From Chrysomallon squamiferum (lineage: Eukaryota; Animalia; Mollusca): a stretch of DNA of 64,000 nucleotides. Where the stretch lies: positions 8,804,001 through 8,868,000 of the forward strand of contig CM022676.1 of assembly GCA_012295275.1 (NCBI GenBank), read 5' to 3'. Below are positions 10,673 through 61,586 of this stretch, one piece after another (positions within the stretch are counted from its first letter, which is position 1; the number at the start of each line of letters is the position of its first letter). Both the position numbers and the translations under genes were made by a program. The notes under the pieces are model-generated. The model had not been told where the DNA came from and did not search any database. It saw only the letters and a program-made list of their open reading frames with translations.

Positions 10673-11561
10673 CTAGTTGTCGAACGGGTTGATGAAGAAG
10701 GTAGTAAGTCTAAAAAAAAAAAAAACAAAATAACCCGATTAAAAAAATATATAATAATAATAATAATAAAAAAAAAAAAAAAAAAAAGGTTAACTATTTT
10801 AAAATCATTATCTAAATTTTTCTTTCTTTTATTTTATTTTATTTAATTATTTCTTACTTTTTTTAAAGTTCGTATTTTCAAAACCATTAAATTATTATTA
10901 CTATAATTTTTACTATTATTATTATTATTACTGGGTGTATTGTTGTTGTTGTTGATGCTGTTGTTGTTGCTGTTGCTGTTGTTGTTCTTCTTCTTCTTCT
11001 TTAAATGGAGATCCCTTCCGTAAAGGAACGAGATTCCTCGAGATTTGGCATCTGTTAATTTTTAATTAGATACGATAATATCCGAAATGTCCCGAAGGAT
11101 CTACAACGGTTTGACAAGCGCCCCACCCCCCACCCTACCCGCATTGCGCTTCGCTATTTGAATAAGAAATATTATTACTATTATTATTGTAATTATTATT
11201 ATAAAATCGATTATAAACCAATAAAAATCATGTTCGACTTACATGATAATTAGCAGAGACATAGGAAAGGCCAATGCCTGACCGGAACTTCGTCTCGGTG
11301 ATTCAGTGTAATTCAGATTTACTATGGGAGTGACTGAAGAAAAGAACCAGTGAACGAATTAAAGAATGAAAGAAAAAAGAATAAAACAATGAAAAATATT
11401 TATAACAAAGAAAAAACAAACAAACAAAAAAAAACATAGTCAGAACCTGACCGGACCTTTATCGAGGGGTTTCTGTTTATGAAACAATGGAAGAAAGGAA
11501 ACAATAAATGAATTAAAGAACGAAAGAAAACAGGAATATAATGATGATGATGATGATGATG

Positions 11562-11626
<65 letters not shown>

Positions 11627-11858
11627 AAGAAGAAGAATTAGTAATAATAATAATAATAATAACAATAGCTTCAAAAACAACAACAATAATACTACTAATA
11701 ATAAATGAATGAAGACGTTAAGGAGATTCAGTCACGTTACGTTACACACCAGTAAAGTATTTCGTGTTTCCAATCATAGATGGTTCAGTGAAGCTACGAA
11801 CATTTTTCATGAATACAGACAGACAAAGGATTAGACAGCGAGGCAGACATACATACAT

Positions 11859-11890
<32 letters not shown>

Positions 11891-12090
11891 TACAGCCGTT
11901 TCACTGAACTTAAAAGAAAAATAATAATAAAAAATTAAACATTACTACGAATTGACGTACTGATATAGTCATTTCTACGATCTTACAAAAATCTACCATG
12001 ACAAATTGACCAATAAACAAACAAAGTACTTCAGATAAGGAAAACATTTTCTTTCAGACATATAAACATGTTTCTTATTATGACGTGGTT

Positions 12091-12131
<41 letters not shown>

Positions 12132-12551
12132 TTAAACTGACAAACAAAAACCGATAAGCAACACACAGAGATATCGTGCATACAGTAGCATGTTAACTTT
12201 TTAAAAAGAAAATATCACATACTAATTGACCATATCCTTAACTTCAAATACAGTTAAATCGTGCCCATTACACACCCATTTCTTAATAATATTCTTTAAA
12301 TGAATCATTTTCCAATTTATATAACCACTAATATCAATATTTCTTACAACTAAATTTGGCTGAGCTCAAAAGTTTTTGTAAGAATTTTATTTCACTGAGT
12401 ATATACTTGTTTCTTAACCTTGTCGTAAAACAATGGAATTACAGAACATTTAGTTAGATCGTCTGATCGAATCCCAACACTTACGCTCAAAAACTAGACG
12501 GCTACAGTTTTGTAACAAAATACGCTGTTATTCACACAGCCAAGCTCTTCC

Positions 12552-12592
<41 letters not shown>

Positions 12593-12702
12593 GTTTTTAT
12601 GTGCGTGTGCGTCTGCATGTTTTAATTACGACTCTCTGATAATGTATTCACAATATTATTGACTTAAATATAACTCATTTTAGCTCGCTGTTAAATTATG
12701 CC

Positions 12703-12749: not shown

Positions 12750-13268
12750 GTAACAACAACAGCAGCAGCAGCAACAAAACAACAACAACAATAATAATAT
12801 TAATGAAAAATAAAATAAAATAAAATAAAATAAAATAAATAAATAAAACAACGACCATACCTTCAGGCTTGAGTAACATAGTCAGATTATTGCTATGGAT
12901 CTTTTTCCTGAATTCTTGACAATGCCAAGTCTTGTTAATGTGCACGTCCGAAATTGTCGTAATGTGTAAAATGTACTTCTTAACCTTCGACCCGTTCACC
13001 AACGTTCCTGCCCCACACGACACAATCTGGTCGTGCAGAGTTATGTCTTCCTCGCACCTGCCAAACCCCTGATACACCACACCCGCGAGGGCTGTGTCCC
13101 GATAGAAGTATATAGTACTGTCGAACAGTTCAGCATCCTCTACCATACATGTTAGTGTGTACGGGCGATTCAGTACTATGTAATCGTCCGAACCGTTCAG
13201 AACCAGGGTATAACCTGCAAACATTATAATTGTAGCATCACTTCAGGTGCATCCCCCCTATCACTATG

Positions 13269-13319: not shown

Positions 13320-13893
13320 GCCTCTACTGCTGTTCCTGTTACTGCAACAACTACTACTGTTGTTGGCATTGCAGCTACCGGTGCTACTGCTATCACTGCT
13401 TTTGCAGAAACCACTACTGTTATTACTGTAGCTGCCACCCTGCAACTTTAGCTACTACTACTGTTACTGCTGCTACTATTACTACTACTACAACTGTTGC
13501 TGCTGTTACTACTATTCCTGCTACTGCTACTATTACTACTATTGGTACTATTACTTACATCACTCCTATTATTATTACTGCTCCTGCTAGTGCTGCTACT
13601 GCTACCACTACTACTTCTACAACAACAGCAACTACTACTACTACTACTACTAACCACTGCTGCTGCTACTACTACAACAACTACTACTACGACTACTACT
13701 ACTACAACAACAACTATTACCACTGCTGCTGCTGCTGCTACAACAATAACAACTACTACTACTACAACTACTACTACTGCTACTGCTGCTGCTGCTACTA
13801 CTACTATTGGTCGTGTACAGCAAAAAACTAACCTATACAAACACCAGCAATTTGGAGAAATATCAACTCAAAAACATTGGTCTTCAGTGACAT
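10673..13893 (-). CDS. Gene A: signal peptide + single Ig-like domain + GPI-signal-like tail, 180 aa; complement(join(13833..13893,12861..13214,11243..11333,10673..10709))
   Basis: Four exons with GT/AG boundaries and compatible phases (1,1,2), total 543 nt. Leader MSLKTNVFELIFLQIAGVCIG; Ig exon GYTLVLNGSDDYIVLNRPYTLTC...CGAGT...KKYILHI...WHC...NLTMLLKPE; tail VTPIVNLNYTESPRRSSGQALAFPMSLLIIILTTFFINPFDN*. Same exon layout as genes B/B'. Confidence 0.85.
13265..13806. repeat. Degenerate (ACT/GCT)n trinucleotide tract filling the leader-Ig intron of gene A
   Basis: Direct reading; source of the poly-T/Y/L/V/S ORFs. Confidence 0.95.
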
Positions 13894-13955
13894 CTCTGCA
13901 AAAGCATAGGTCTGGTGATATCCTGTAAATATAAATATATATGTGTGTGTGCGTA

Positions 13956-19242: not shown

Positions 19243-19845
19243 TCACCAAGAAATTCTGATGCTAATTTGGTGCCAGCAGACGTTGATGAAGAAGAGAAAT
19301 CTAAAAAAGAAAAAACTGTTCATTATAATTTATCAAAAAGAAAATATTTGAGAGTAAACGTTAGTGAAATTAAGATGCCATTTTCTGCAGTTTTATTTGT
19401 ATTTATTTATTTATTATTATTGTTGTTGTTGTTGTTGTTATTGTTGTCGTTGTTGTTGTTATTATTATTATTATTACTATTTGCATGTGTGTATGTGTGT
19501 GTGTGTGTATTATCTGCATACTGAATAGAGAATGATACTGAAACAGACCCTAGCATAATATCAGATATGAATAAATAAGTTTGTTTATTCTTACGCGCAG
19601 GTTGTCAACAGAATATGAGATTGTGGCTGGACAGTGTCCGAGGTTACATCTAAAACAAACGAACAAACAAATAAATAAATAATTTAGGAAGAAATAAATT
19701 GGCTATTTGTAATCATCATCATTATCAATTTTCATCATTATTGACATTATGTGATCTAGCATATATATAGCTACAAATAATAAATTATACAGTGAAATGT
19801 ATTTTAACATATTTAGTGCTAAATAATAATAACAATTATAATAAC

Positions 19846-19884: not shown

Positions 19885-21605
19885 TACTTTAAAAATTATT
19901 TGTTTTGTCAAAGAATTTTGACAAAAACGTTACTGTTATAATTTCTGACATTAAAATATGACGTCACTGTATGCGAGGTGCTGTAATATATATATATATA
20001 TATATAAACTTGGAAATTAATAATTTGGTTTTATTTATTTATTTACTTATTTTGATTTTTATCTATTATCATTAAAGAGACCAAATGTTGAAATTAAACA
20101 CATAATAACACCGATTAAGTTAATATACAAGTGCGAAATTATTTTTGAAGTCTCAACATGTCTTCATGATTTAAGTCAGTAACAGTATAGAAATAAAACA
20201 ACTGAAATACAGTTGTGTTAGTCTGATTAGTTTCTGAAGAAGGATAATTACTGATTTAATTTCATAACGAACATAGCACTGAAGTGTCAATCACTAAGAT
20301 AATTATTGATATTCCAGGATATTAATAAATAAAAAAAGAAGAAGAAAAAGAGGAAATAATATGTAGTGAAATGAAGGTTTAGGGATAGGAAGCATATCTC
20401 CATAACAGCCATAAACAATATTGTTTTAAGCAGTATAGCAATAACGTCAACTAATTATAAGCCTATGGGGCATGGGGCGTACCATGGTAGATAAAAATAA
20501 ACAAACAAACAAACAAACAAACAAATAAATAACAATTAATAATACAACAACTAGATTAAATAACGTATCATCTATTGGGTGTTACGCAACGATGAAAACA
20601 ACAAAATTGTTTTGTTAATCAATATTAAACTAGCTCTAAAACGATAACACAACAGTTTATATATTTTAAAAGAAATTTTACAGAAAGAAATTGTGAAATT
20701 TTGGCTTCGTTGCTTGGATTCGGATTCAAGACACCACCACACACGCTCGACGTCTTCAGGAAGTTTTCCTATTCTTAGAACGTACGTTTTAACAGTTGAG
20801 CATGTGTCATTTGTTGTTGTGCCGCACTGAGCATCATGATTAGGGTAGACACTAGTTGCGTCACAGACTTTCAATTTCTGGAAGGCTGAACCGAAAGAGC
20901 CGAATTTATTTTCGAAACTAATAGCACCGGTAAAAACGTCAGCCTCTGAGACAGTGCATGTAAGTTCATAAGATTCGTTGAAGACAGCAATTGAAGGGTT
21001 GCCGGACATATCCAATTCAAAACCTGGAAGAACAGTTTTCGTTATTAGATTTTTATATCAAGACGAAAGCGTTGTCATTACTGTCACGATGGTCATCGTC
21101 ATCGTCATCATGAATATCCTCATCCTCATCAATACCACAATGACGAGACTGATCATCATAATGATCATGATTGCTTGCCTTCACTAATCAACATCATCAT
21201 CATCATCATCGTCATCATTAGCAGAATACTCGTCAACGTAATTATCATGACAACGCTGGTTGGCCATGATGGTATGATAATGATGATGATAATCTTCTTC
21301 ACTATAATCGTTATCATCTTAATCATCATAACGGGGTATAAGTAATTCTTTCTGTGTGTGTGTGTGTGTGTATTTGTGTGTGTGTGTGTGTGTGAACATA
21401 CAATTAAACCGGTAACACGAATATTATGTATATTTGAGTACAGACAATCCGCGTGCTTAAGCATTTTTGGAGCGACATGGGACCCACTGGGGAGACTGAT
21501 AAAGCGGTGTGTCTGTATCAGTACTACTACTATCACTACTACTGCTACTACTACTACTACTACTACTACTACCTCTACTACTGCTACTACTACTACTACT
21601 ACTAT

Positions 21606-21744: not shown

Positions 21745-21997
21745 GTTCCGCAGGCGGAAGACGATGCTAGAAGATCACGAAGTCAATTTATGTATCTGTA
21801 TGTATGCATTTATGTATGTATATGTATGTATGTAGGTAGCTGGGTATGTATGTATGTATGTATGTATGTATGTATGTATGTATGTTATGCATTCGACCTT
21901 GTACGTAATTCATGAAGTACAAAGGTAAAAACTAACCGTCACAAACGCCGACAATTTGCAGAACTGTGAACAGAGACAAGAAAGTCTTCAAAGCCAT
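19243..21997 (-). CDS. Gene B: signal peptide + single Ig-like domain + hydrophobic tail, 171 aa; complement(join(21937..21997,20682..21023,19595..19649,19243..19300))
   Basis: GT/AG boundaries, phases 1,1,2, total 516 nt. Leader MALKTFLSLFTVLQIVGVCDG is homologous to the gene A leader (both 61-nt CDS, same GTTAGT donor); Ig exon FELDMSGNPS...LTC...CGTTTNDTCS...WWC; tail YVTSDTVQPQSHILLTTCAFLFFINVCWHQISIRISW*. Confidence 0.88.
21522..21743. repeat. (ACT)n tract in the leader-Ig intron of gene B (much shorter in B', 42667-42745)
   Basis: Direct reading and paralog comparison. Confidence 0.95.
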
Positions 21998-22062
21998 ACT
22001 TCTGGAAACTTTTCTAGTAGGAATATCGATAAAATAAAACTGTTGAGAAAATTTGTATACAC

Positions 22063-24022: not shown

Positions 24023-24223
24023 CAACAATAATCATAATAGAAATAATCATAATTGTAATAATAATTCTTATTATTAATTGATTCATTTAATTATTTGTTT
24101 ATTTGTTTGTTTGTTGTTGGTTTTTTGCTTGTGTGCTTGCTTGCTTTCTTGATTCCAAGTTTGTTTCTAAACAGTTGTTCTTCTTTAAGTATATTGCTTT
24201 TTATACAAGAACATTTTCAAGAA

Positions 24224-24278
24224 ATGACGTTCAGTAGAAACATCATTTTTTTTCTACTATGCTTTAGCACTTGCTCAG
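24224..24278 (+). pseudogene. Orphan type-C leader exon (MTFSRNIIFFLLCFSTCS), donor mutated GT>AT, no Ig exon follows
   Basis: Near-identical to leaders at 27208-27262 and 54616-54670; homology stops at ~24385; orientation is opposite to neighbouring genes. Confidence 0.8.
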
Positions 24279-25110
24279 ATAAAATCTGTTCTAGATAAAT
24301 TGTTCTTCATTTGTACTAAATTTATATATCAGTGGAACACGCACAGACAAGTTACTTTCGCATTTAATTCAGGAAATGAGCTAACTTTATTATTATTATT
24401 ATTAACAACAACTGTTTTCAAGAATCACTTGCGGCATTCATGCATATTTTTCGCATTTTCTGGAGTCAGTTAATCTTTCCCATTAACAAACATCCATAGT
24501 TAGATACTTCGAGTCAGTCAACAACTGAATTCAAAATACAACAAATAAAACACACAAAAAAATAAAAATAATAATAATTCCAATGATAAAAAAAAAAAAA
24601 AAAAAAATGCACAGATCTTTATAATAATTTCAAAATCTCCAGGTATGAAATATGTAACAAAGGAAGTGTATGCTCAGTATCATTATAATAAAGTTATTGA
24701 CTTTGTGGATGTGATCGCGTGTGCCAAAATGGGACGATATATTCTACCATTCCTCAACTGTAACACTAAAAAGTTGTTCAATGTTGTTAACAATGTTATT
24801 ATTTGAGGTTTTGGTTTTGGTGATATTCTGTGTATAAAGTATGTTAGTATTAATATTACTTAACAAAAATGTACTTATTCGTCTGAACTGTTTAACATAA
24901 AGTTGTGTGATGATGCAGAATTGTTACAAAAACAACAACAACAAAAATAAAAACAAATAAAAAAGTAAGAACACAAGATTTTTAAACAAACCTTTTTTTA
25001 TTTTTTCTAAACATTAAGAGTAATCATTACGTATAATATAGAACTATTAAATCCGAAATGGAGAGTTTGTAACTTAATACAGTATTATTAATAATAATAA
25101 TAAAGAAAAA

Positions 25111-25147: not shown

Positions 25148-25860
25148 CATAGTTATAAATAAATAATGCAAAAACAGTACAAACTACTGTAACGGAAAAA
25201 TGTTCAGTTAGGGTCCTTGATAGAATAAAAAAAAACTTTCAGTTAGAGACAGGATATCATCTAAGCAAAAAATATTATAATAATAAAACATTAAAATAGT
25301 ATCTATAATATCATCTCGTAAAAACTGTAATAATAAAAAATATCAATTTATTGTACATGATAGGACCTAAAAACAAACAAAGAAATAAATCAAAGGAAAT
25401 AAATAATATGAACAACATAAATGAAAGAGAAAAGAAAAATAAATAAATCTATAAATAAATAGATAGATAAACTATGAAGAAAGCTGAAATAATACAAATA
25501 AACTGAAATGAAACAAACACCTAAATAAATAATTAAAATACAAAAATAAAATAAAATAAAATAAAGTAAAATAAAATAAATAAATAAATAAATAAATAAA
25601 GAATAGTCTTTGAATTTATAAACAAGAGAATATAAATGATTTGAAAAATACAAGAAAGAAAAAAGCAAACTATATACATGTAACAATGTATCTTCATTTT
25701 CTGAACATTAGAACAAATTTTGAAACTGCAACAGGAATAATGTAAACAAATGTCCATCGAATATTACTTCAGTGGTGATTGTTGGTAAACCAGCTATGTG
25801 GATTAAGCTGACTAATCTACAAAACCAAAGATATAAATTAATTGCTATATCTATAATACA

Positions 25861-25934
<74 letters not shown>

Positions 25935-26054
25935 TGTGTGTGTGTGTGTGTGTGAAGCTGGAGAGATCTATATTATTAGATTCAAATCCAAATATTTAAT
26001 ATTTATTAATCATTGTAAATAAATAAATAAATAAATAAATATTATTTTCCTTAC

Positions 26055-26419
26055 ATGTAAATCATCGAATGACACGAAGCACTCTGTGACTAGATTTTTC
26101 TAATCTGACTAAAAAGAAAAATGTTTAAATTATTTTATTTTTATTATATTCTTCATTACTGAATTTGTTGTTATTATAAGTGGAAACTGAAACATTAGAT
26201 AAGCTGTAGGTCATGACATTTTAAAACTATTACTTAATATAAAACCAATGTTTTTACTTTTATCAAGAACCGCATACGTAATCTTGATAATAGCATTGTT
26301 ATTTATTAAATTCAATATTCTTAAAAATGACTACATATATGAACAAACACAAGATGCACACAAATGTAAACAAATTACAAAATACACGCAGTCTGGAACT
26401 TAGCGATATACATATACAT

Positions 26420-26465
<46 letters not shown>

Positions 26466-27262
26466 CATACACAAAAAATCTCACATTAAAACAGATAAAT
26501 ACAAATAAGTAGATAAACACACACACATAAAAAAAAAAAACGAACAGAAAAATCCGCACATATTGACACCCGCACTACATATATACACACACAACTCACG
26601 GACACACAAAATATTTTTTTGTTTCAGAACAAGCATCATCAGTTCCTTCTCCACAGACAGCTACGTAGCCACGAGGTAGATTGCCTTTGAATTCACACGA
26701 ATTGTATTTCTGATCAAATACACCAAGAACGTGTGCGGCAGCATAGATAAATGTCGAGCCACCCTCAAGAGGAGTTTCTGACTCAGTACACGTAACCGAA
26801 AAAGGCTGACTGGTTGTCACTGTCGGGACCGACTTAGTAAGAGACAGCTGTATTGCTGGAACAAAAGTTTAAGAAAGTAAAAGTGAAAACAAAATTTTTC
26901 TCTTTTATTTATAATATTGCTGGACAGGCGCTAATGTCCTGAACTATTTCCGAAAGTAGTTAATGTACAGAATTATTTGAGAAAGTAGTTAATGTACAGA
27001 ATTATTTGAAAAAGTAGTTAGTGTACTGAATTATTTGAGACACTACCTTATGTAGTAAATTATTTCACAAAGTAGCTGATGCACTGAATTATTTGAGAAA
27101 GTAAGCTAATTTCCTGAATTAAATGCGAAAGTAACTTGTCTGTGCGTGTTCCACTGATATATAAATTTGGTGCAAATGAGGAAGAATTTATCTAGAACAG
27201 ATTTTACCTGAGCAAGTGCTAAAGCATAGTAGAAAGAAAATGATGTTTCTACTGAACGCCAT
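26055..27262 (-). pseudogene. C1: type-C gene with a 123-bp deletion removing the C-terminal third of the Ig domain (WWC motif) and the splice donor
   Basis: Leader 27208-27262 intact; Ig exon starts at 26855; reading ...ACSETKKY joins directly to intronic FVCP* (74 vs 115 aa in the ORF track). Confidence 0.85.
26935..27125. repeat. ~29-bp minisatellite in the leader-Ig intron of C1; also 34335-34545, 39570-39720, 48255-48570, 54760-54940, 60405-60590
   Basis: Unit approximately CAAATAATTCTGTACATTAACTACTTTCT; copy number differs between paralogs. Confidence 0.9.
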
Positions 27263-27459
27263 TTCTTGAAAATGTTCTTGTACTAAAAGCAATATACCTA
27301 AAGAAGAACAATTTTTTAGAAACAAACTTGGAATCAAGAAAGCAAGCAAGCACACAAGCAAAAAACCAACAACAAACAAACAAACACATAATTAAATGAA
27401 TCAATTAATAATAAGAATTATTATTACTATTATGATTATTTCTATTATTATTATTGTTA

Positions 27460-27491: not shown

Positions 27492-28123
27492 GATAACTAT
27501 TTTTAAAAAACACTTCAGGCATGCATGCATATTTTTCGCATTTTATAATTTTTTTCTCTAGTTTGGAACTTAACTACAATATTAGTATCTTACTGGAATC
27601 AGTTAATCTACCTCATAAAGAAACATCAATAGGTACATACTTCAAATCAGTGAACAACAGAATTCCAAAATCCAGAAAAAAAACAATAAAAAAACGTTCC
27701 AAATGATAAAAAAAAAACACTAATCTTCACAGATATGTATAACAATATTAAATTCTCCAGATATAAAATATGTAAGAAAGCAAATGTCTCTTCAATATCT
27801 TTATAATAAAGTTGTTAGCTTTCTGGATGTCGTCTCCAGATATAATGCCAACACGTGACAATAGGATCTCGTATCTCAATTTGCTCGTAAATGAAATTAA
27901 TTTTCCCAACTGAAATTAATTGAAAAACCATTAATCCTTTCCAGCCCACCAAAATCCACCCCACTTTATATATATATATTTTTTTATTTGTAACGACGAC
28001 TTCGCCCACCATTCTGCAGCAGCGGCAGCAATATCCGCCACCCGTTTGTCTAGTCTGGCTGTCATACCATTGTTTTGCACTTTTGGTTTCACCAGTTCAC
28101 GTGTCTTGTCCTTTAAAAAAATA

Positions 28124-39258: not shown

Positions 39259-39430
39259 AAGAAGAAAAAGAAGAAGAAGAAGTAAAAGAAGAAGAAGAAG
39301 AAGACGAAATTAACAATACAATAGGCAAAGCTTTTTCTTTATTCTTATTATTAATTGATTAATTTATTTATTTGTTTTCTCGCCTGCTTTCAAATATTTT
39401 TGTTTCTAAAAAAAAAAAAAAAAAAAAAAT

Positions 39431-40156
39431 CGTTCAGTAGAAACATCATTTTCTTTCTACTATGCTTTAGCACTTGCTCAGGTAAAATCTGTTCTAGATA
39501 AATTGTTCTTCATTTGCACCAAATTTATATATCAGTGGAACACGCACAGACAAGTTACTTTCGCATTTAATTCAGGAAATTAGCTTACTTTCTCAAATAA
39601 TTCAGTGCATCAGCTACTTTGCAAATAATTCAGTTCATTAACTACTTTCTCAAATAATTCTGTACATTAACTACTTTCGAAAATAATTCTGTACATTAAC
39701 TACTTTCGAAAATAATTCAGGACATTAGCGCCTGTCCAGCATATTATAAATAAAAGAGAAAAATTTTGTTTTCACTTTTACTTTCTTAAACTTTTGTTCC
39801 AGCAATACAGCTGTCTCTTAATAAGTCGGTCCCGACAGCGACAACCAGTCAGTCTTTTTCGTTTACTTGTAGTGTGTCAGCACCTGCTGCTAGGGGTGGC
39901 ACGATATATATCTTTGGTGGCTGATACATTCTTGCTACATTTACTCAGAGATACGGTTTGTGTAAAATCAACAACGATCTGCCTCGTGGCTACATAGCTG
40001 TCTGTGGAGAACGAACTGATGTTCCTTGTCCTAAAATAAAAAAAGAAAGGATATGTTGTGACCATTGAGAAACTCACTGACGACGTAGAGAGTAGTTGGA
40101 AGTGCAAAGAATGGACTAGCAGAGTAACTAGCGAGATTGTTACTGTGGCAATGAAC
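39431..40156 (+). pseudogene. Divergent type-C pseudogene (psi-C)
   Basis: Leader remnant 39431-39481 lacks ATG; Ig exon 39803-40156 (IQLSLNKSVPTATTSQSFSFTC...CGERTDVPC...WKCKEW) has an in-frame TGA at 39922-39924, a frameshift in the A-run near 40040 and a deleted splice donor. Confidence 0.85.
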
Positions 40157-40619
40157 TATATTTGTGTGTGTGCTTGCGTTCTGTGTATATATTTAGTACG
40201 AGTGTGAATATTTCTTTGAGTGTTTGTGTGCGTGTTTTTTCTATTTTATTTTTTTTGTATATGTGCGTGTGTTTACCTAAATGTTTGTACGTATTTGTTT
40301 GAATGTGAGATTTTGTTTGTATGTGGGTTTTTTTTTTTGGGGGGGGGTTCTTTTCTTGTGTGTATGCATATCTCTGTTTCAGATTACATGTGTTTTGTAT
40401 TATTCTGTACATCTTGTGTTTGTTCATATATGTGGTAATTGCTTAGAATATTTGAATTTAATAAACAACAGCGATATGAGCCTGTGGTCTTGGGTGTTCG
40501 TTTTCGTAACTTTTTTCTTTTCATTCGTTTGACTAAGACGAATGAAAAAGTATTACCCATCACATCCACTGATTGTAGCCTGTCGTAACAACTAATCCAA
40601 AGATATTTTTACAAGAAAA

Positions 40620-42384: not shown

Positions 42385-42574
42385 ACACATTTTCTCAACA
42401 GTTCTATTTCATCGATGTTCCTACTAGAAAAGTTTTCAGAAGTATGGCTTTGAAGACTTTCTTGTCTCTGTTCACATTTCTGCAAATTGTCGGCGTTTGT
42501 GACGGTTAGTTTTTACCTTTGTACTTCATGAATCACGTACAAGGTCGAATGCATAACATACATACATACATACA

Positions 42575-42606
<32 letters not shown>

Positions 42607-42869
42607 CATACATACAGATACATAAGTTTACTTCGTGATCTTCTAGCCACGTCTTCCGCCTGCGGAATAGTAGTCGTAGTAGTAGTAGTGGTAGTGGTAG
42701 TAGTAGTAGTAGTAGTAGTAGCAGTAGTAGTGATAGTAGTAGTACTGATACAGACAAACCGCTTTATAAGTCTCCCCAGTGGGTCCCATGTCGCTCCAAA
42801 AATGTTTAAGCACGCGGATTGTCTGTACTCAAATATACATAATATTCGTGTTACCGGTTTAACTGTATG

Positions 42870-42921
<52 letters not shown>

Positions 42922-43674
42922 AAGAATTACTTATACTCCGTTATGATGATTAAGATGATAATGATTATAGTGAAGAAGATCATCATCATCATTATCATCA
43001 TCATGGCCAACCAGTCTAGTCATTATAATTACGATAATTATGATGGTCAGTCTGATCATTGTGGTATTGATGAGGATGAGGATGCTGATGATGACGATGA
43101 CGATGATGATCGTGACAGTAATGAGAACGCTTTGGTCTTGATTTAAAAATCTAATAACGAAAACTGTTCTTCCAGGTTTTGAATTGGATATATCCGGCAA
43201 CCCTTCAGTTGCTGTCTTCAACGAATCTTATCAACTTACATGCACTGTCGCAAAGGCTAAGCTTTTTACCGGTTCTATTAGTTTCGAAAATAAATTCGGC
43301 TCTTTCGGTTCAGCCTGGCAGACAATGGAAAAATGTCAAACAACTAGTGTCATATTTAATCATAACGCTGAATGCGGCACAACAACAAATGACACATGCT
43401 CAGCTGTTAAAAAGTACGTTCTAAGAATAGGAAAACTTCCTGAAGACGTCGAGCGTGTGTGGTGGTGTCTTGAATCCAAATCCAAGCAACGGAGCCCAAA
43501 GTTCACAATTTCTTTTGGTAAAATTTATTTTAAAATATAAACTGTTGTGATATCATTTTAGAGCTAGTTTAACACTGATTAACATAACATTTTGTTCTTT
43601 TTACCTCTGCATAACACCTATCCCTAAACCTTCATTTCACTACATATTATTTCCTCTTTTTCTTCTTCTTTCTG

Positions 43675-43706
<32 letters not shown>

Positions 43707-44055
43707 TTAATATCCTGGAATATCAATAATTATCTTAGTGTTTGACACTTCATTTATTATTTATAGCTATATATATGCTAGGTAACATAATGTCAATAAT
43801 GATGAAAATGATGATGATTAAAAATAGCCAATTTATTTCTTCCTAAATTATTTACTTGTTTGTTTGTTAAGTTGTTTTTTGCTTGTTTGTAGGAGATGTA
43901 AAAGTAACTTCGGACACAGTCCAGCCACAATCTCATACTCTGTTGACAACCTGCGCGTAAGAACAAACAAACTTATTTATTCATATCTGATATTATGCTA
44001 GGGTCTGTTTCAGTATCATTCTCTATTCAGTCGTTATACAGGTATTTCATTTGAC

Positions 44056-44104
<49 letters not shown>

Positions 44105-44147
44105 TGTGTGTGTGCAGATACACACACATACCTATATAGATAAATAG

Positions 44148-44191
<44 letters not shown>

Positions 44192-44528
44192 CAATGCAGA
44201 AGATGGCATCTTAATTTCACTAAATTTTACTCTCAAATATTTTCTTTTTGATAAATTATAATGAACAGTTTTTTTCTTTTTTAGATTTCTCTTCTTCATC
44301 AACGTCTGCTGGGACCAAATTAGCATCAGAATTTCTTGGTGAACATGGAATGATGTATTCTTCAGAATTGTCTGCTATTGGAATTGATCCAGCTTTGATG
44401 AAATTGATCCAATTTTGATGGATTTGATGGATTTTTCATGTTGTCAAGTTTGCTTTGTTTACAGTTCACTGACAAATTGTAACATTGCAAATATTTATAG
44501 AACATCATTTTGTTGTTATTCATGCAGC

Positions 44529-49379: not shown

Positions 49380-49524
49380 GATTAGAAAAAGCTAGTCACA
49401 AAGTGCTTCGTGTCATTCGATGATTTACATGTAAGGAAAATAATATTTATTTATTTATTTATTTAAAATGATTAATAAATATTAAATATTTGGATTCGAA
49501 TGTAATAATATAGATCTCTCCAGC

Positions 49525-52460: not shown

Positions 52461-53023
52461 GCAGTAGACCGATCATCTCCGATTTTGATAAAATTTACTT
52501 TATTTTTCGATCCATATTAATAATGGAAACATTCAAAAACCTGGGTCCAGCAGCAGCAGCAACAACAACAACAACAGCAACAACAGTAATAACAATGAAA
52601 AGAACACATCAATAGAGACGGGATAAGTCTGGTATTTCATCAAACTGCTACATTGTTTGACAAACAACGCTACATTATTTTGAAATAATGACGTAAATTA
52701 TGTCTACGTTGCTGATTACGAAATCAGTCAAGGTCACTAGAATTATCTTTTTGCAAGAAGATGATTTCGATTTGGTAACGTTTTGCATTTGTTCTTTAAA
52801 ATATTCATTGATTTGAAATTTTCATGTCTATTATATTATTATTATTATTATTATTATTATTTATTTGTTTATTTATTTATTTATTTATTTTAGTACAGTG
52901 AATAAATATAAATATAAATAAACAATATACTTACTAAAATGAAAGAAAATACTAAATACAACAGGGTTCGAAATTAATAAACCAAATTAACCAACCAATT
53001 AAAAAAAAACAGTTAAAAAAAAA

Positions 53024-53080
<57 letters not shown>

Positions 53081-53459
53081 GAAATCGGAAGACCGTCAAG
53101 CAGACGATAGAAGCTAAGACTGCATTCGGGAAAGTTCGGATTTATCCCCTTTTTCGGACGACATGGTCCTAATATTGACCTTTGACATATTTTTCACATA
53201 TTGGTAATTGAAATATTAAAAAACCTGGGTCCATGTTCTTGTTAATTTTGAAATTAAAGTTGATCTCCCCAGCATTTGTGAAATGGATGTCGGGAATCGG
53301 CGTAACTGGTGCAAGTTAAACGAAGGGATGGTACAGAACAATGTTCAAATTACTTGTTTGTCAAAATACTCCTATAAGTAATATTCCATCAAAGGAATTT
53401 ACTATTAACAAGTTTATTTTATTTGCAATTAAATAAAAACCAAGTATCTTTGCGGGCGA

Positions 53460-53500
<41 letters not shown>

Positions 53501-53965
53501 CTTTGTAACATTCTGTATATATTATATATCTACGTGTGTGTGTTTATGTGTGTGTGACGGTGTGTGAAATGTAAGATAGTTTCTTTTGCTCTGAAAGTAA
53601 AAGATCGCCACGCATTGTGATAATTGATATTTATGAGAATGTGACGTTGAGTTGGCGATGCGCTGTTAATAATAATCATTTTTTAGATTCAGTGGATCAA
53701 GCGCATATCTGTTTTCGAAGGACGAAGAAAATATTTTAAAAAGTTATGAATGTATCTTTATACAGTGGCATGTTAAAACATTTGTAGCGATCACTAAAAT
53801 TCATGCGCAATAATTTAGCAATGCAAAGTCTGCTATAGCAGCCTTGATTACACAGGCATCGTGAGAAGTCGGAGATTTCACAGGAATCGAATCGCGTCTC
53901 CTCGAAACGTCAGAGGTGGTCATTTGTAAAAATGACAGTCTCCGCTTCGGATTACATAGTAGAGC

Positions 53966-54458
53966 TACCACTGCCTCAACTTACGAGTTTTTCGAGTTAA
54001 GAGCAGTCGCCGGTGCAGATTTCTGCTTTGAATTGTCAGACTAAATCCGAGTTACGAGCGACCTTCAGATAGGACGCCGCTAATTGGCGTAACGAACAAC
54101 GTAACATCCGGCCAGCATCCCGCGTCTCACTCGTTTACTTCACGTGGTTCCTCGCCGCGGAAGTCTCTCTGTTGTGTTGTGCTCGCGTTATGTGGAGTAT
54201 TTTGCCCAATTTCCATGGGTCGTAAGAAAATTAGTGCAAAGGACAGTACTGAGAACAAGAATCGGATGATCTTATTGCATTAAAGCTTGAATTGATAGAA
54301 AATGTGAGTGACTTGGCTTGGCAGAACGAACGTAGTACTTCCACGATGTGTACCATACCGAAGCTGAAGGAGTCGATAAAGGCTGTAACTCCAGGCAAAG
54401 GCGTTGAAATAATTTGTCTGAAATCAAAGATATCTACACTTTACGAAACGAATTTATT
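53966..54458 (+). mobile_element. Truncated pogo/Tigger-like element copy; also 59614-60105 and fragment 47757-47954
   Basis: Inverted match to ~28362-28852; the 3' part and TIR were removed by a ~0.95-kb deletion shared by right-arm units. Confidence 0.8.
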
Positions 54459-54615
54459 CTTATTATTAATTGATTCATTTAATTATTTGTTTGTTTGTTT
54501 GTTTGTTGTTGGTTTTTTGCTTGTTTGCTTGCTTGCTTTCTTGATTCCAAGTTTGTTTCTAAAAAATTGTTCTTCTTTAGGTATATTGCTTTTGGTACAA
54601 GAACATTTTCAAGAA

Positions 54616-55557
54616 ATGGCGTTCAGTACAAACATCATTTTCTTTCTACTATCCTTTAGCACTTGCTCAGGTAAAATCTGTTCTAGATAAATTGTTCTTC
54701 ATTTGCATCAAATTTATATATCAGTGGAACACGCACAGACAAGTTACTTTCGCATTTAATTCAGGAAATTAGCTTACTTTCTCAAATAATTCAGTACATT
54801 AACTACTTTGTGAAATAATTTACTACATAAGGTAGTGTCTCAAATAATTCAGTACACTAACTACTTTTTCAAATAATTCTGTACATTAACTACTTTTTCA
54901 AATAATTCTGTACATTAACTACTTTCGGAAATAATTCAGGACATTGGCGCCTGTCCAGCAGTATTATAAATAAAAGAGAAAAATTTTGTTTTCACTTTTA
55001 CTTTCTTAAACGTTTGTTCCAGCAATACAGCTGTCTCTTACTAAGTCGGTCCCGACAGTGACAACCAGTCAGCCTTTTTCGGTTACGTGTACTGAGTCAG
55101 ACACTCCTCTTGAGGGTGGCTCGACATACATCTATGCTGCCGGATACGTTCTTGTTGTATTTCATCAGAAATACAATTTCTGTGAAGTCAAAGGCGATGT
55201 ACCTCGTGGCTACGTAGCTGTCTGTGGAGAAGGAACTGATGATGCTTGTTCTGAAACAAAAAAATATATTATAAACATTGAGAGAGTTGACCCTGTCACA
55301 TACGGAGCATGGTGGTGTGAACACTTCGAAAGCGGTAGAACTAGCAACAATGTAACTATAGCTGTGAAGGTAAGTATAGATAAATTATATTTTGTGTGTC
55401 CGTGAGTTGTGTGTGTGTATATGTAGTGCGGGTGTCAATATGTCTTTGTGGGTTTGTGTGCTGGATTTGTTTTTGTTCGGTTTGCTTTTTGTATAAGTGT
55501 GTGTGCTTATCTACTTATTTGTATTTATCTGTTTTAATGTGAGATTTTTTGTGTATG

Positions 55558-55603
<46 letters not shown>

Positions 55604-55895
55604 ATGTATATGTATATCGCGAAGTTCCAGACTGCGTGTATTTTGTAATTTTTTACTTTTGTGTGCATCTTGTGTTTGTTCATATATGTATTCATTTTTA
55701 AGAATATTGAATTTAATAAATAACAATGCTATTATCAAGATTACGTATGTGGTACTTGATAAAAGTAAAAACATTTGTTTTATATTAAGTAATAGTTTTA
55801 AAATGTCATGACCTACAGCTTATCTAATAACAACAAATTCCGGAATGAACAATATAATAAAAAGAAAATAATTTAAACATTTTTGTTTTCAGTGA
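54616..55895 (+). CDS. Gene C4: signal peptide + single Ig-like domain, ~134 aa; join(54616..54670,55023..55369,55893..55895); 3' end uncertain
   Basis: Leader MAFSTNIIFFLLSFSTCS, open 347-nt Ig exon with canonical splice sites, downstream exons 55893-55946 and 56154 onward. Confidence 0.75.
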
Positions 55896-56040
55896 GATTA
55901 GAAAAAGCTAGTCACAGAGTGCTTCGTGTCATTCGATGATTTACATGTAAGGAAAATAATATTTATTTATTTATTTATTTAAAATGATTAATAAATATTA
56001 AATATTTGGATTCGAATGTAATAATATAGATCTCTCCAGC

Positions 56041-56088
<48 letters not shown>

Positions 56089-56857
56089 TTATAGATATAG
56101 CAATGAATTTAATCTATGGGTGCCAAATTAATTCAATATCTTTGGTTTTGTAGATTAGTCAGCTTAATCCACATAGCTGGTTTACCAACAATCACCACTG
56201 AAGTAATATTCGATGGACATTTGTTTACATTATTCCTGTTGCAGTTTCAAAATTTGTTCTAATGTTCAGAAAATGAAGATACATTGTTACATGTATATAG
56301 TTTGCTTTTTTCTTTCTTGTATTTTTCAAATCATTTATATTCTCTTGTTTATAAATTCAAAGACTATTCTTTATTTATTTATTTATTTTATTTTACTTTA
56401 TTTTATTTTACTTTATTTTATTTTATTTTATTTTTTTATTTCAATTATCTATTTATGTGTTTGTTTCATTTCAGTTTATTTGTATTATTTCAGCTTTCTT
56501 CATAGTTTATCTATCTATTTATTTATAGATTTATTTATTTTTCTTTTCTCTTTCATTTATGTTGTTCATATTATTTATTTCCTTTGATTTATTTCTTTAT
56601 TTGTGTTTAGGTTCTATCATGTACAATAAATTAACATTTTTTATTATTACAGTTTTTACGAGATGATATTATAGATACTATTTTAATGTTTTATTATTAT
56701 AATATTGTTTGCTTAGATGATATCCTGACTCTAATTTAATGGTTTTTTGTTATTCTATCATGGACCCTAACTGAACATTTTTCCGTTACAATAGTTTGTA
56801 CTTGTTTTGCGTCATTCATTTATTTATAACTATTATTATTATTATTATTATTATTAC

Positions 56858-56889
<32 letters not shown>

Positions 56890-58454
56890 TTTGTTTTTTC
56901 TTTATTATTATTATTATTAATACTGTATTAAGTTACAAACTCTCCATTGCTGATTTAATAGTTCTATTTTATACGTAATGGTTACTCTTAATGTTTATAA
57001 AAAATAAAAAAAGGTTTGTGTAACAATCTTGTGTTCTTACTTTTTTGTTTTTATTTTTGTTGTTGTTGTTTTTGTAACAATTCTGCATCATCACACAACT
57101 TTATGTTAAACAGTTCAGACGAATAAGTACATTTATGTTAAGTAATATTAATACTAACATACTTTATACACAGAATATCACCAAAACCAAAACCTCAAAT
57201 AATAACATTGTTAACAACATTGAACAACATTTTAGTGTTACAGTTGAGGAATGGTAGAATATATCGTCCCATTTTGGCACATGCGATCACATCCACAAAG
57301 TCAATAACTTTATTATAATGATACTGAGCATACATTTGCTTTGTTACATATTTCATACCTGGAGATTTCGAAATTATTATAAAGATCTGTGCATTTTTTT
57401 TTTATCATTGGAATTATTATTTTTTTATTTTTGTGTGTGTTTTATTTGTTGTATTTTGAATTCAGTTGTTGACTGATTTAAAGTATCTACCTACGGATGT
57501 TTCTTTATGGGAAAGATTAAGTGAATCGAGTAAAATATTTAAATTTTAGTTAAGTTCTTAAGTTGAGAAAAAACTACAAAATGCGAAAAACATGCATGGA
57601 TGCCTGAAGTGATTCTTTCAAATAGTTGTTAATAATATTAATACTAATAATAATAAGAAGAAGAAGAATAAAAAATATTATGCGAATAATAAAAATAAAT
57701 AAATGAATAATGAACAGTGTACTTACTTATTTATTTGTCTTTTTTGTTTGTTTTAATTTAATTATTTATAGATATACTTTGTTTTATTTTTGTTTTATTT
57801 TACTGATTTATTTTAATTTATTATTATTATAATATATTTTTTCTTTTTACTTTCTTTCTAAAAAGAAAACAAAAATCTTCTTTAGCAGTATAATTTTTGG
57901 AGCAAGTACATTTTCAAGAAATGGAGATCAGTAGAAACATCATTATATTTTTACAAACATTTAGCGCTTGCTCAGTTAAATTCTGTTCCATATAATTTAT
58001 ATATCATTGGAAAGACATAACCCCTCCCACACCGACCCCCCACCCAACACACATACACACACACTTTCGTAACAAACTGTTTACTGAGCAACAAGAAGAA
58101 GACGAAAAATAGCAAGAAGAAGAAGAACAATCAAAATAATAAAGAGAAGAGAAACAATAACAGCAGCAGCAGCAGCAGCAGAAACAACAACAATAACAAC
58201 AATAATAATAATGAAAAGAACACTAAGCCTCAGTACAGATGGGACAAGTCTGTTCTTTCGTCAAGCTGCAACATTGTTTGACAAACAACGCTACATTATT
58301 TTGAAATAATGACGTAAATTATGTCTACGTTGCTGATTACGAAATCAGTCAAGGTCACTAGAATTATCTTTTTGCAAGAAGATGATTTCGATTTGGTAAC
58401 GTTTTGCATTTGTTCTTTAAAATATTCATTGATTTGAAATTTTCATGTCTATTA

Positions 58455-58485
<31 letters not shown>

Positions 58486-58650
58486 TATTTGTTTATTTAT
58501 TTATTTATTTATTTATTTTAGTACAGTGAATAAATATAAATATAAATAAACAATATACTTACTAAAATGAAAGAAAATACTAAATACAACAGGGTTCGAA
58601 ATTAATAAACCAAATTAACCAACCAATTAAAAAAAAACAGTTAAAAAAAA

Positions 58651-58707
<57 letters not shown>

Positions 58708-59086
58708 GAAATCGGAAGACCGTCAAGCAGACGATAGAAGCTAAGACTGCATTCGGGAAAGTTCGGATTTATCCCCTTTTTCGGACGACATGGTCCTAAT
58801 ATTGACCTTTGACATATTTTTCACATATTGGTAATTGAAATATTAAAAAACCTGGGTCCATGTTCTTGTTAATTTTGAAATTAAAGTTGATCTCCCCAGC
58901 ATTTGTGAAATGGATGTCGGGAATCGGCGTAACTGGTGCAAGTTAAACGAAGGGATGGTACAGAACAATGTTCAAATTACTTGTTTGTCAAAATACTCCT
59001 ATAAGTAATATTCCATCAAAGGAATTTACTATTAACAAGTTTATTTTATTTGCAATTAAATAAAAACCAAGTATCTTTGCGGGCGA

Positions 59087-59148
<62 letters not shown>

Positions 59149-60263
59149 CTTTGTAACATTCTGTATATATTATATATCTACGTGTGTGTGTTTATGTGTG
59201 TGTGACGGTGTGTGAAATGTAAGATAGTTTCTGTGGCTCTGAAAGTAAAAGATCGCCACGCATTGTGATAATTGATATTTATGAGAATGTGACGTTGAGT
59301 TGGCGATGCGCTGTTAATAATAATCATTTTTTAGATTCAGTGGATCAAGCGCATATCTGTTTTCGAAGGACGAAGAAAATATTTTAAAAAGTTATGAATG
59401 TATCTTTATACAGTGGCATGTTAAAACATTTGTAGCGATCACTAAAATTCATGCGCAATAATTTAGCAATGCAAAGTCTGCTATAGCAGCCTTGATTACA
59501 CAGGCATCGTGAGAAGTCGGAGATTTCACAGGAATCGAATCGCGTCTCCTCGAAACGTCAGAGGTGGTCATTTGTAAAAATGACAGTCTCCGCTTCGGAT
59601 TACATAGTAGAGCTACCACTGCCTCAACTTACGAGTTTTTCGAGTTAAGAGCAGTCGCCGGTGCAGATTTCTGCTTTGAATTGTCAGACTAAATCCGAGT
59701 TACGAGCGACCTTCAGATAGGACGCCGCTAATTGGCGTAACGAACAACGTAACATCCGGCCAGCATCCCGCGTCTCACTCGTTTACTTCACGTGGTTCCT
59801 CGCCGCGGAAGTATCTCTGTTGAGTTGTGCTCGCGTTATGTGGAGTATTTTGCCCAATTTCCATGGGTCGTAAGAAAATTAGTGCAAAGGATAATACTGA
59901 GAACAAGAATCGGATGATCTTATTGCATTAAAGCTTGAATTGATAGAAAATGTGAGTGACTTGGCTTGGCAGAACGAGCGTAGTACTTCCACGATGTGTA
60001 CCATACCGAAGCTGAAGGAGTCGATAAAGGCTGTAACTCCAGGCAAAGGCGTTGAAATAATTTGTCTGAAATCAAAGATATCTACACTTTACGAAACGAA
60101 TTTATTCTTATTATTAATTGATTCATTTAATTATTTGTTTGTTTGTTTGTTTGTTGTTGGTTTTTTGCTTGTTTGCTTGCTTGCTTTCTTGATTCCAAGT
60201 TTGTTTCTAAAAAATTGTTCTTCTTTAGGTATATTGCTTTTGGTACAAGAACATTTTCAAGAA

Positions 60264-61440
60264 ATGGCGTTCAGTACAAACATCAGTTTCTTTCTTCTAT
60301 GCTTTAGCACTTGCAGAGGTAAAATCTGTTCTAGATAAATTGTTCTTCATTTCCACCAAATTTATATATCAGTGGAACACGCACAGACAAGTTACTTTCG
60401 CATTTAATTCAGGGAATTAGCTTACTTTCTCAAATAATTCAGTGCATCAGCTACTTTGCAAATAATTCAGTATATTAACTAATTTCTCAAATAATTCTGT
60501 ACATTAACTACTTATGCAAATAATACAGTTCATTAACTACTTTCTCAAATAATTCTGTACATTAACTACTTTCGGAAATAATTCAGGACATTAGCTCCTG
60601 TCCAGCAGTATTATAAATAAAAGAGAAAACTTTTGTTTTCACTTTTACTTTCTTAAACTTTTGTTCCAGCAATACAGCTGTCTCTTAATAAGTCGGTCTC
60701 GACAGTGACAACCAGTCAGCCTTTTTCGGTTACGTGTACTGAGTCAGAAACTCCTCTTGAGGGTGGCTCGACATACATCTATGCTGCCGGACACGTTCTT
60801 GTTGTATTTCATCAGAAATACAATTTCTGTGAAGTCAAAGGCGATGTACCTCGTGGCTACGTAGCTGTCTGTGGAGAAGGAACTGGTGATGCTTGTTCTG
60901 AAACAAAAAAATATATTATAAACATTGAGAGAGTTGACCCTGTCACATACGGAGCATGGTGGTGTGAACACTTCGAAAGCGGTAGAACTAGCAACAACGT
61001 AACTATAGCTGTGAAGGTAAGTATAGATAAATTATATTTTGTGTGTGCGTGAGTTGTGTGTATATATGTAGTGTGTGTGTGGGTTTGTGTGCTGGATTTG
61101 TTTTTGTTCGGTTTGTTTTTGTATATATACTTATTTGTATTTATCTGTTTTAATGTTTTTTGTGTAGACTGCCAGACTGCGTGTATTTTGTAATTTTTTA
61201 CATTTGTGTGCATCTTGTGTTTGTTCATATATGTATTCATTTTTAAGAATATTGAATTTAATAAATAACAATGCTATTATCAAGATTACGTATGTGGTAC
61301 TTGATAAAAGTAAAAACATTTGTTTTATATTAAGTAATAGTTTTAAAATGTCATGACCTACAGCTTATCTAATAACAACAAATTCCGGAATGAACAATAT
61401 AATAAAAAGAAAATAATTTAAACATTTTTGTTTTCAGTGA
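60264..61440 (+). CDS. Gene C5: signal peptide + single Ig-like domain, ~134 aa; join(60264..60318,60670..61016,61438..61440); 3' end uncertain
   Basis: Leader MAFSTNISFFLLCFSTCR, open 347-nt Ig exon with canonical splice sites, downstream exon 61438-61492. Confidence 0.75.
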
Positions 61441-61586
61441 GATTAGAAAAAAGCTAGTCACAGAGTGCTTCGTGTCATTCGATGATTTACATGTAAGGAA
61501 AATAATATTTATTTATTTATTTATTTAAAATGATTAATAAATATTAAATATTTGGATTCGAATGTAATAATATAGATCTCTCCAGC

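Follow-up and report, generated by a model that had tools for sequence, protein, structure and literature searches.

The VCBPs of protochordates are secreted defence proteins in which two variable-type (V) immunoglobulin (Ig) domains are combined with a chitin-binding domain. Secreted V-type Ig domains also serve invertebrate defence in the VIgLs of molluscs (FREP, CREP, and GREP; PMC7588048, PMC10875847). In the cnidarian Hydractinia, the Alr genes are clustered and encode divergent, atypical V-set domains that are seen only by structure prediction; some members have secreted splice forms, some have tails with immunoreceptor tyrosine-based activation or inhibition motifs (ITAM or ITIM), and domain 1, which is without the B- and F-strand cysteines, is followed by domains of I-set and Fn3-like type, a transmembrane segment, and a tail (PMC9546547). 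The CEACAM/PSG family of vertebrates is also clustered and presents a V-like N domain in transmembrane, glycosylphosphatidylinositol (GPI)-linked, and secreted versions, with selection and conversion acting on the N domain (PMC8860441), and the PSGs are secreted (PMC7893922). The present study describes a cluster of genes for single V-type Ig domains in Chrysomallon squamiferum, the scaly-foot snail, located in a 64,000-nucleotide stretch of contig CM022676.1 (assembly GCA_012295275.1, positions 8,804,001 to 8,868,000 of the forward strand; hereafter the window), and compares it with these systems.

An original prediction, made from the letters of the window, had proposed seven open genes (A, B, B', and C2–C5) and two broken copies (C1 and X) of one design, and this was borne out by a profile scan and an exon map. 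A family profile run over all six-frame open reading frames (ORFs) of at least 20 amino acids, together with tblastn, recovered seven full domains, one truncated domain (C1), and one domain in three pieces (X), and found no further copy among those ORFs, the next profile match being at E 0.39. Genes A, B, C1, and C2 are read from the minus strand, and the plus strand carries X, B', C3, C4, and C5, in DNA that is AT-rich (23–37% G+C per 2 kb), contains many microsatellites, and is free of N. A four-exon plan consisting of a leader exon, a single domain exon, and two 3' exons is present in all intact genes, with AG-GT borders throughout; the leader exon has 55 coding nucleotides (nt) in A and the C copies and 61 in B and B', and the domain exon measures 354 nt in A, 342 nt in B and B', and 347 nt in C2–C5. 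Some details of the proposed design stood in part. The two short 3' exons occur in each gene but are coding only in A, B, and B'; an acceptor-like sequence precedes each leader exon, but the intron in the untranslated region that it was taken to end is putative; and the cluster had been placed at 10673..61492, which begins at the stop of A and ends with exon 3 of C5, so that exon 4 of C5 falls outside it. These are separate genes and not parts of one long multi-Ig gene, having their own leader exons and lying on both strands, with a C-type transcript that runs in RNA from the domain exon into a stop.

The predicted fold is a V-type beta-sandwich, in agreement with the Ig-like domain first proposed. 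An AlphaFold2 model built with 98 sequences reached pLDDT 96.9 and pTM 0.89, with all five models above 96, and replaced an earlier model from seven sequences (pLDDT 68.6, Z 8.4). When the model was compared with 48,161 chains by VIA-align, the top 50 rows were all Ig V-type domains (Z 11.9–13.6), the best being CD8 alpha (Z 13.6, rmsd 1.7 Å over 97 residues, 13% identity); Foldseek was in agreement (TCR V-beta, E 2e-5), and an Atlas structure search with a relative gave TM values of 0.68–0.75 to V-set clusters. Strands A/A', B, C, C', C'', D, E, F, and G are all in the model, their lettering being read from DSSP order.

Across the seven window domains the B-strand cysteine, the F-strand W-x-C, a second cysteine pair, and the C-G-x-(G/T)-T...K-x-Y motif are invariant, as had been claimed; of the longer K.Y.L.I motif, K-x-Y is kept and the leucine is replaced by isoleucine or valine in the C copies. 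In aligned domains from the window and its relatives, the B-strand cysteine was found in 161 of 161 and the F-strand cysteine in 167 of 167 (75–76 residues apart in the window). All four cysteines are invariant among 168 domains (second pair 168/168), as is the tyrosine, and the glutamine is present in 165, conservation that is partly selected, since a profile of these genes served to gather the set and the seven window domains are part of it. The model places the second pair on strands C'' and D, such that B-F and C''-D disulfides are predicted; B, B', and the C copies have a fifth cysteine in the D-E loop. The V-set tyrosine corner is D-x-G-x-Y-x-C, and here tryptophan stands for the tyrosine in 162 of 167 domains and the aspartate is also gone from the window domains, while the canonical C-strand tryptophan is replaced by phenylalanine in 148 of 167 and by isoleucine in the C copies. 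These replacements of the core tryptophan and the tyrosine corner explain why Pfam gave no meaningful match, V-set (PF07686) included, for any of the seven domain ORFs at E up to 1. A seven-sequence profile likewise found no solved structure below E 0.3.

The domain belongs to a larger family. A full HMMER scan returned 187 protein clusters at E up to 0.001, 54 of them at 1e-10; the best 150 were listed and 30, picked mainly by length, were looked up, of which 22 had names, all from the peltospirid vent snail Gigantopelta aegis, and the other eight were ENA records without a name. Word-seeded homologue searches with the C4 domain, the seven-sequence alignment, and the 98-sequence alignment (for longer proteins) came back empty, and the Atlas gave unnamed clusters, most of them molluscan (0.93–0.96). 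The window domains score 92–98 bits on the family profile and carry its signature of Gln-x4-Cys, C-G-x-G-T, K-x-Y, and W-x-C; their best identity to relatives is 33–39%, with none above 39%. Each G. aegis protein has between one and four copies of the domain, either on their own or combined with Ig, EGF, or FN3 domains, and of the 22 proteins 11 have a transmembrane helix and tail, four a GPI-like end, and seven neither. Examples are XP_041373028.1, XP_041378788.1, XP_041367795.1, XP_041372610.1 ('draper-like'), and XP_041373960.1 ('NCAM1-B-like'), which share with the window genes the cysteines, the glutamine, C-G-x-G-T, K-x-Y-x-L-x-I, and W-x-C and, like them, may be anchored or not, whereas most of the named relatives have extra Ig, EGF, or FN3 domains. 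Their names are automatic, and no tested function was found for any of these proteins. The last of them has a V domain, two Ig domains, an FN3 domain, a transmembrane helix, and an ITAM-consensus motif in its C-terminal tail, and a protein of its type is a candidate signalling partner. One relative cluster has five near-identical members, four of them on contigs of equal size, which suggests tandem arrays elsewhere too.

The idea of a standalone diversified recognition system is thereby amended: the single-domain genes are real, but their domain is a module of a much larger snail family. Receptors with several Ig domains, with EGF domains, or with a transmembrane segment share it, so a design of one domain represents the family in its minimal form. 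That the genes belong to no named family held, with nothing in Pfam and relatives without an established name. No description of the domain was found in the open-access literature, the accessible part of a review of invertebrate Ig proteins (PMC11999971) names no such family, and the domain and its use in vent snails appear undescribed, the kind of system being known from vertebrates and cnidarians. A possible point of contact is orthogroup OG0000013 ('CEACAM5') of Lan et al. 2021, reported as immunity-related with 130 genes in G. aegis, 101 in C. squamiferum, 103 in Bathymodiolus platifrons, and 59 in Lottia gigantea (PMC7895826). Like the present genes it is an expanded Ig family in peltospirids, and several of the relatives found here have the plan of V domain, C2/I-set domain, and transmembrane helix that would earn such a label, so overlap with this domain family is plausible; unlike the present family, it is defined by a BLAST label and, in the accessible part of that report, comes with no domain description (PMC7895826). 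Both OG0000013 and the Ig family of the scaly-foot snail (PMC11871041) may include multi-domain members of this family.

The C-termini of the single-domain genes are of two sorts. The domain exon of A, B, and B' has phase 1-1, and the frame stays open through exons 3 and 4, giving totals of 178, 171, and 174 residues; the best 11-residue hydropathy near the C-terminus is 3.05 in A and 2.47 in both B and B', as opposed to 0.4 in the C copies. Gene A has Ser-Ser-Gly about 27 residues before its end in a GPI-signal-like pattern, and the combination of small-residue site, spacer, and hydrophobic end is clear in A and weaker in B and B', as judged from hydropathy and predicted 3' exons. All three products are likely GPI-tethered, a prediction that suits A better than B and B'. 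In C2–C5 the domain exon ends in phase 0 and is followed by a stop, at once in exon 3 in C3–C5 or after two codons in C2, yielding 134–136 residues that are likely secreted, since a C-type RNA contig joins the domain exon to the stop in exon 3. In another frame, exons 3 and 4 of the C copies hold a relic of a hydrophobic tail across the same junction as in A and B. The exon 4 DNA of A and B and of B and C2 is more alike than shuffled sequences (p 0.003), which is not the case for exon 4 of A and C2 (p 0.11) or for exon 3 among A, B, and C (p 0.67–0.92). From the relic and the B/C2 likeness we infer that the C lineage probably lost an ancestral anchor through two one-base shifts.

Evidence of transcription came from four sequencing runs (X1–X4) compared with positions 52500–58000, of which X2–X4 are RNA labelled as metatranscriptomic and whose contigs show presence, not absence. 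In X3 there is depth over the bins of the C4 leader, domain exon, and exons 3 and 4 and none in the intron bins 54708–54891 and 55444–55811, which X1 does cover. A contig of X3 (depth 14.3) passes directly from 55368 to 55895, so that the domain exon meets exon 3 at GT-AG sites as predicted; the three letters at the jump equal the final base of the domain exon plus the two that open exon 3, of C1/C2 type, and a stop follows two codons on. All 13 of its listed variants have C2 letters, and C2 itself was considered as its source and rejected, for over 55191–55368 the contig has 4 differences where C2 has 9; it is thus a variant absent from the window, possibly an unbroken C1. Two more X3 contigs over 55072–55220 have 10 and 12 differences from C4, as expected of C2 and C1. 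X3 contains a 5' half of C1 type as well as a full 3' half, spliced, from a related type, and C1 may be intact in other individuals. A search with 52500–61600 listed no RNA run. X2 and X4 have no cover on the C exons in 52500–58000, which carries no weight either way. The RNA evidence is confined to C-type paralogues and, as regards splicing, to the joint between domain exon and exon 3, and the splicing of A, B, and B' is a prediction.

The cluster has been shaped by duplication and decay. Self-comparison showed an inverted duplication (28360–33748 against 54458–49034, 91%) and tandem duplications among C3–C5 (95%), and B and B' are 89–95% alike by block. Domain identities are 24–30% among the A, B, and C types, 78% between B and B', 85–86% between C2 and C3–C5, and 96–97% among C3–C5; a FastTree phylogeny of 163 domains groups A with B/B' and places C elsewhere, with weak deep support. 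Nested duplications, two broken copies, and five orphan leader exons agree with the birth-and-death evolution first suggested.

Divergence is concentrated in the domain exon, which upholds the description of the domain as diversified. Between B and B', 36 of 339 bases in this exon differ (31 replacement, 5 silent) against 98 of 2784 sites in the flanks, and between C2 and C4, 20 of 345 (17.5 replacement, 2.5 silent) against 69 of 1904. The proportion of replacement sites that differ (pN) is 0.118 (11.8%) in B/B' against a flank rate of 0.035 (3.5%; p 6e-8) and 0.067 in C2/C4 against 0.036 (p 0.013). These flank rates leave out microsatellites, sites near gaps, and the B/B' intron after the domain, and the neutral rate does not count the upstream stretch of C2 and C4, where 81 differences among 281 sites were put down to misalignment; C3–C5 are mutually too close for divergence testing. 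Residues 47–59, which comprise the end of C', the turn, and C'', hold 8 of the 24 changes in B/B' and 7 of the 17 in C2/C4. With this interval fixed from B/B', the clustering in C2/C4 has p 5e-4, and the scan-corrected values are 0.038 for B/B', 0.019 for C2/C4, and 0.13 for C2/C3.

We conclude that genes A–C5 are a real, at least partly expressed, and rapidly turning-over cluster of single V-type Ig genes. Set against the described systems, they differ from FREP, CREP, and GREP, since the predicted frames end at most 45 residues past the domain and a C transcript has its stop in RNA, and from VCBPs, having one domain and nothing after it; VIgLs and VCBPs carry a C-terminal fibrinogen, lectin, or chitin-binding domain. 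They are also unlike Dscam, with its serial or alternative Ig exons, in that every domain exon has its own leader exon and copies lie on both strands, and unlike Alr in that the domains keep their cysteines and nothing follows them. The original prediction had excluded FREP/CREP, Dscam, and Alr architectures because it saw no fibrinogen, lectin, kinase, or cytoplasmic domain. The CEACAM/PSG resemblance is one of organisation and is not specific homology, as CEACAM1 matches at E 3e-4 to 5e-4 over strands E-G only and among many Ig proteins. CEACAM N domains are not known to have a disulfide, whereas the window domains have two predicted ones, and the window genes are without IgC domains.

The function is much less certain than the fold and the gene family. 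By analogy, we favour a birth-and-death, CEACAM/PSG-like set of tethered and soluble domains, most likely binding variable microbial surface molecules, a reading to which we give about an even chance. With a leader, one V domain, a tether or none, and no cytoplasmic part, the proteins are limited to extracellular binding, and any signalling would pass only through partners, for example transmembrane relatives with the same domain. Binding of variable microbial surface molecules would take place through the fast-changing C'-C'' edge. The tethered forms could coat epithelium or haemocytes, where they would capture, or be targeted by, bacterial adhesins, and the secreted forms could act as decoys, agglutinins, or opsonins, while duplication, gene conversion, and selection would keep altering the binding edge. 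Fast change at an edge, gene turnover, pairs of tethered and soluble forms, and receptor relatives together match the pattern reported for primate CEACAM N-domains under bacterial adhesin pressure (PMC8860441).

Several observations weigh against this reading. The comparison of replacement with silent change alone gives p 0.14 for B/B', 0.095 for C2/C4, and a borderline 0.057 when pooled. At silent sites, too, the B/B' exon is more diverged (5 of 76) than the flanks, so some of the excess in that pair could stem from conversion by a more distant paralogue; edge strands tolerate change anyway, and loose constraint may contribute to the clustering; and family-wide variability in the C-C' and F-G loops is as high as at residues 47–59. 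The calls of GPI signals and signal peptides are from hydropathy only, and the tail of B, and also that of B', may instead cross the membrane as a short helix. The spliced contig, a variant of C1/C2-like type, has no exact match to any window gene, and only one of the 11 transmembrane tails in G. aegis has an ITAM-consensus motif. Fast-evolving secreted and GPI-linked Ig proteins also serve fertilisation and neural wiring. Finally, the G. aegis entries labelled 'carcinoembryonic' show no enrichment among genes raised in the symbiont organ (4 of 43 against a background of 1782 of 21,438, or 8.3%), in a list that is supplementary file 7 of PMC7895826, taken as Supplementary Data 2 by order, and with genes chosen by label, not by domain.

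The domains might instead form a cell-recognition code among the animal's own cells, in which V domains on tethers would engage one another or other Ig proteins as partners, after the manner of Dpr/DIP, IgLON, or the Alr proteins of Hydractinia, and soluble C forms would compete; we regard this as improbable. GPI-like single V domains would suit it, as would changed residues on the edge of the A'GFCC'C'' sheet and a best structural match, CD8 alpha, that forms dimers, and among the matches of the 98-sequence profile are Dpr, DIP, NEGR1, and neurotrimin (E 3e-5 to 2e-3). Those matches, however, cover strands E-F only and are equalled by titin, CD4, and antibody chains, and the neural wiring families are conserved across species, whereas the present copies turn over fast and, as noted above, stand far from their nearest relatives.

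The number of genes, as distinct from their function, could be misjudged if B/B' and C1-C2/C3-C5 were two haplotypes joined in one contig, which we likewise consider improbable, and to the same degree. The two arms have opposite orientations and differ by about 3.5% in non-coding sequence, X1 has only 0.34 of the words of 52500–61600, and where X1 and X3 contigs span the 5' half of the domain exon their letters are of C1/C2 type at full depth; B and B' would then be alleles 22% apart in protein. The N-free sequence of the window argues otherwise, as does a gene order that is neither collinear nor mirrored, running C2, C1, B in the direction of transcription in the left arm and B', C3, C4, C5 in the right. 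C3–C5 also differ from each other by 5–6 nt in the exon and by 0.5–2.4% in the flanks, part of the coverage in X1 at 55284 and in X3 at 55907 shows the letter of C3-C5, and the contigs are in any case a record of what is present.

Less probable than either is a reproductive role, with the proteins being sperm-surface or seminal and egg-coat recognition molecules that diversify under sexual selection. Small secreted or GPI-like Ig proteins with an excess of replacement change fit a class exemplified by Izumo/Juno and abalone lysin, but 22 or more G. aegis proteins use the domain in numerous receptor architectures, among them draper-like EGF-containing and ITAM-bearing ones, and the RNA runs bear a metatranscriptomic label without a stated tissue. 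Lower again we place the view that the C copies are decaying duplicates, their loss of the anchor a lesion and their transcripts by-products, with only the A and B types functional. The broken state of C1 and X and the five nearby orphan leaders lend themselves to it, and the C stop lies 45–52 nt before the last junction, near the 50–55-nt limit for nonsense-mediated decay; on the other hand, all four full C copies retain the leader, frame, splice sites, and four family cysteines while exon 3 of C5 freely gained a base, at least two C variants occur in spliced or exon-limited RNA contigs, and replacement changes are clustered and above the flank rate. That the domains are secreted parts of a shell, sclerite, or mucus matrix is very unlikely, for despite the expansion of an Ig-domain family in the scaly-foot snail and the presence of Ig/FN3 proteins in its sclerites (PMC11871041), matched by class and not by this domain, the present proteins have no low-complexity, acidic, or chitin-binding parts, and fast change confined to one edge is not what such a role predicts.

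Coordinates of the genes, broken copies, and orphan exons are collected in Table 1.

Table 1. Features of the V-type Ig gene cluster, in window positions
Feature	Position	Strand	Description
Gene A, leader exon	13839..13922	-	ATG at 13893; 55 coding nt; predicted signal peptide
Gene A, domain exon	12861..13214	-	354 nt, phase 1-1; four-Cys V-type Ig domain
Gene A, exon 3	11243..11333	-	91 nt, predicted; stalk, putative site of GPI attachment (Ser-Ser-Gly), and beginning of hydrophobic tail
Gene A, exon 4, coding part	10673..10709	-	End of hydrophobic tail and stop
Gene B, leader exon	21937..22013	-	ATG at 21997; 61 coding nt
Gene B, domain exon	20682..21023	-	342 nt, phase 1-1; fifth Cys in D-E loop
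Gene B, exon 3	19595..19649	-	55 nt, predicted
Gene B, exon 4, coding part	19243..19300	-	Hydrophobic stretch, then 9 residues and stop
Orphan C-type leader exon	24175..24290	+	Mutated donor
C1, broken	25687..27297	-	Intact leader 27297-27208; domain exon from 26855, without about 105 nt at its 3' end, donor included (3' third; 26608-26855); exons 3 and 4 retained
Gene C2	32993..34721	-	Leader 34721-34632; domain 34250-33904, 347 nt, phase 1-0
Gene C2, 3' part	exon 3 33382-33329; exon 4 from 33122	-	Stop after two codons of exon 3; 136 aa, predicted secreted
X, broken	39392..40170	+	Leader without ATG; domain exon with in-frame stop and frameshift
Gene B'	42428..44342	+	Leader 42428-42504; domain 43176-43517; exon 3 43893-43956; exon 4 coding 44285-44342; 174 aa, hydrophobic stretch at C-terminus
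Gene C3	48077..49777	+	Leader 48077-48166; domain 48650-48996; exon 3 49377-49430 (initial stop); exon 4 from 49648; 134 aa, predicted secreted
Gene C4	54581..56283	+	Leader 54581-54670; domain 55023-55369; exon 3 55893-55946; exon 4 from 56154
Gene C5	60229..61857	+	Leader 60229-60318; domain 60670-61016; exon 3 61438-61492 (55 nt, with one added base); exon 4 from 61728; 134 aa, predicted secreted
Orphan leader	near 31390	-	Between genes
Orphan leader	near 37915	-	Between genes
Orphan leader	near 51395	+	Between genes
Orphan leader	near 57905	+	Between genes

Other features of the copies and their surroundings were observed. The 5' half of X is 54–58% like C and its 3' half 33–41% like C or B (39803–40170), so that X may be read as a chimera or an older paralogue. 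The C copies have a second strong donor-like sequence 35 bases past the used donor (55404–55409 and equivalents), use of which would still give the exon 3 stop and which may serve the truncated C1, and all C-type copies, as well as X, have a 29-base minisatellite of 6–9 copies in the intron between leader and domain exon (54745–54945; 26930, 34327, 39556, 48241, and 60393). A high-copy repeat at 53972–54523, also found near 27820–28560, 35270–36010, 47756–47954, and 59600–60110, has a summed depth in X1 of up to 38,900 against about 50 nearby; it ends about 100 bases upstream of the C leader exon, has been duplicated along with the genes, and could supply a promoter or 5' untranslated region to the C genes. 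It contains a short ORF that we take to resemble the start of a Tigger/pogo transposase; Pfam gave no match for the ORF (0 of 2). A second repeat family upstream of the C genes (53236–53787) has a depth of 1,600–5,700 in X1 and is found in all three RNA runs. Behind C5 lies a 730-base insertion (63026–63758) with 16-base terminal inverted repeats at 94%, which is not at the matching site behind C3 or C4 and is likely a non-autonomous DNA transposon.

How chemosymbiotic molluscs choose their bacterial partners from seawater is an open question, and the candidates reported so far are conserved pattern receptors, namely PGRPs, TLRs, and lectins (PMC7895826). The locus offers a large V-domain family that is invisible to Pfam, changes fast, has a defined candidate edge for binding, and comes in natural pairs of tethered and soluble forms, and the exons of the C genes record what appears to have been a switch from the anchored to the secreted form. 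It is also a second invertebrate case, after Alr, of V domains missed by sequence profiles. Extending the microbial reading, we offer as a speculative proposal, unlikely as it stands, that this lineage of vent snails independently evolved a CEACAM/PSG-like system from its own undescribed V domain, in which hundreds of variants would appear on signalling receptors, on GPI tethers, and as secreted decoys, and in which copy number and the binding edge would differ between individuals and decide which bacteria from the environment gain admission as symbionts and which are cleared. With domains of about 115 residues each, bacterial binding is directly testable.

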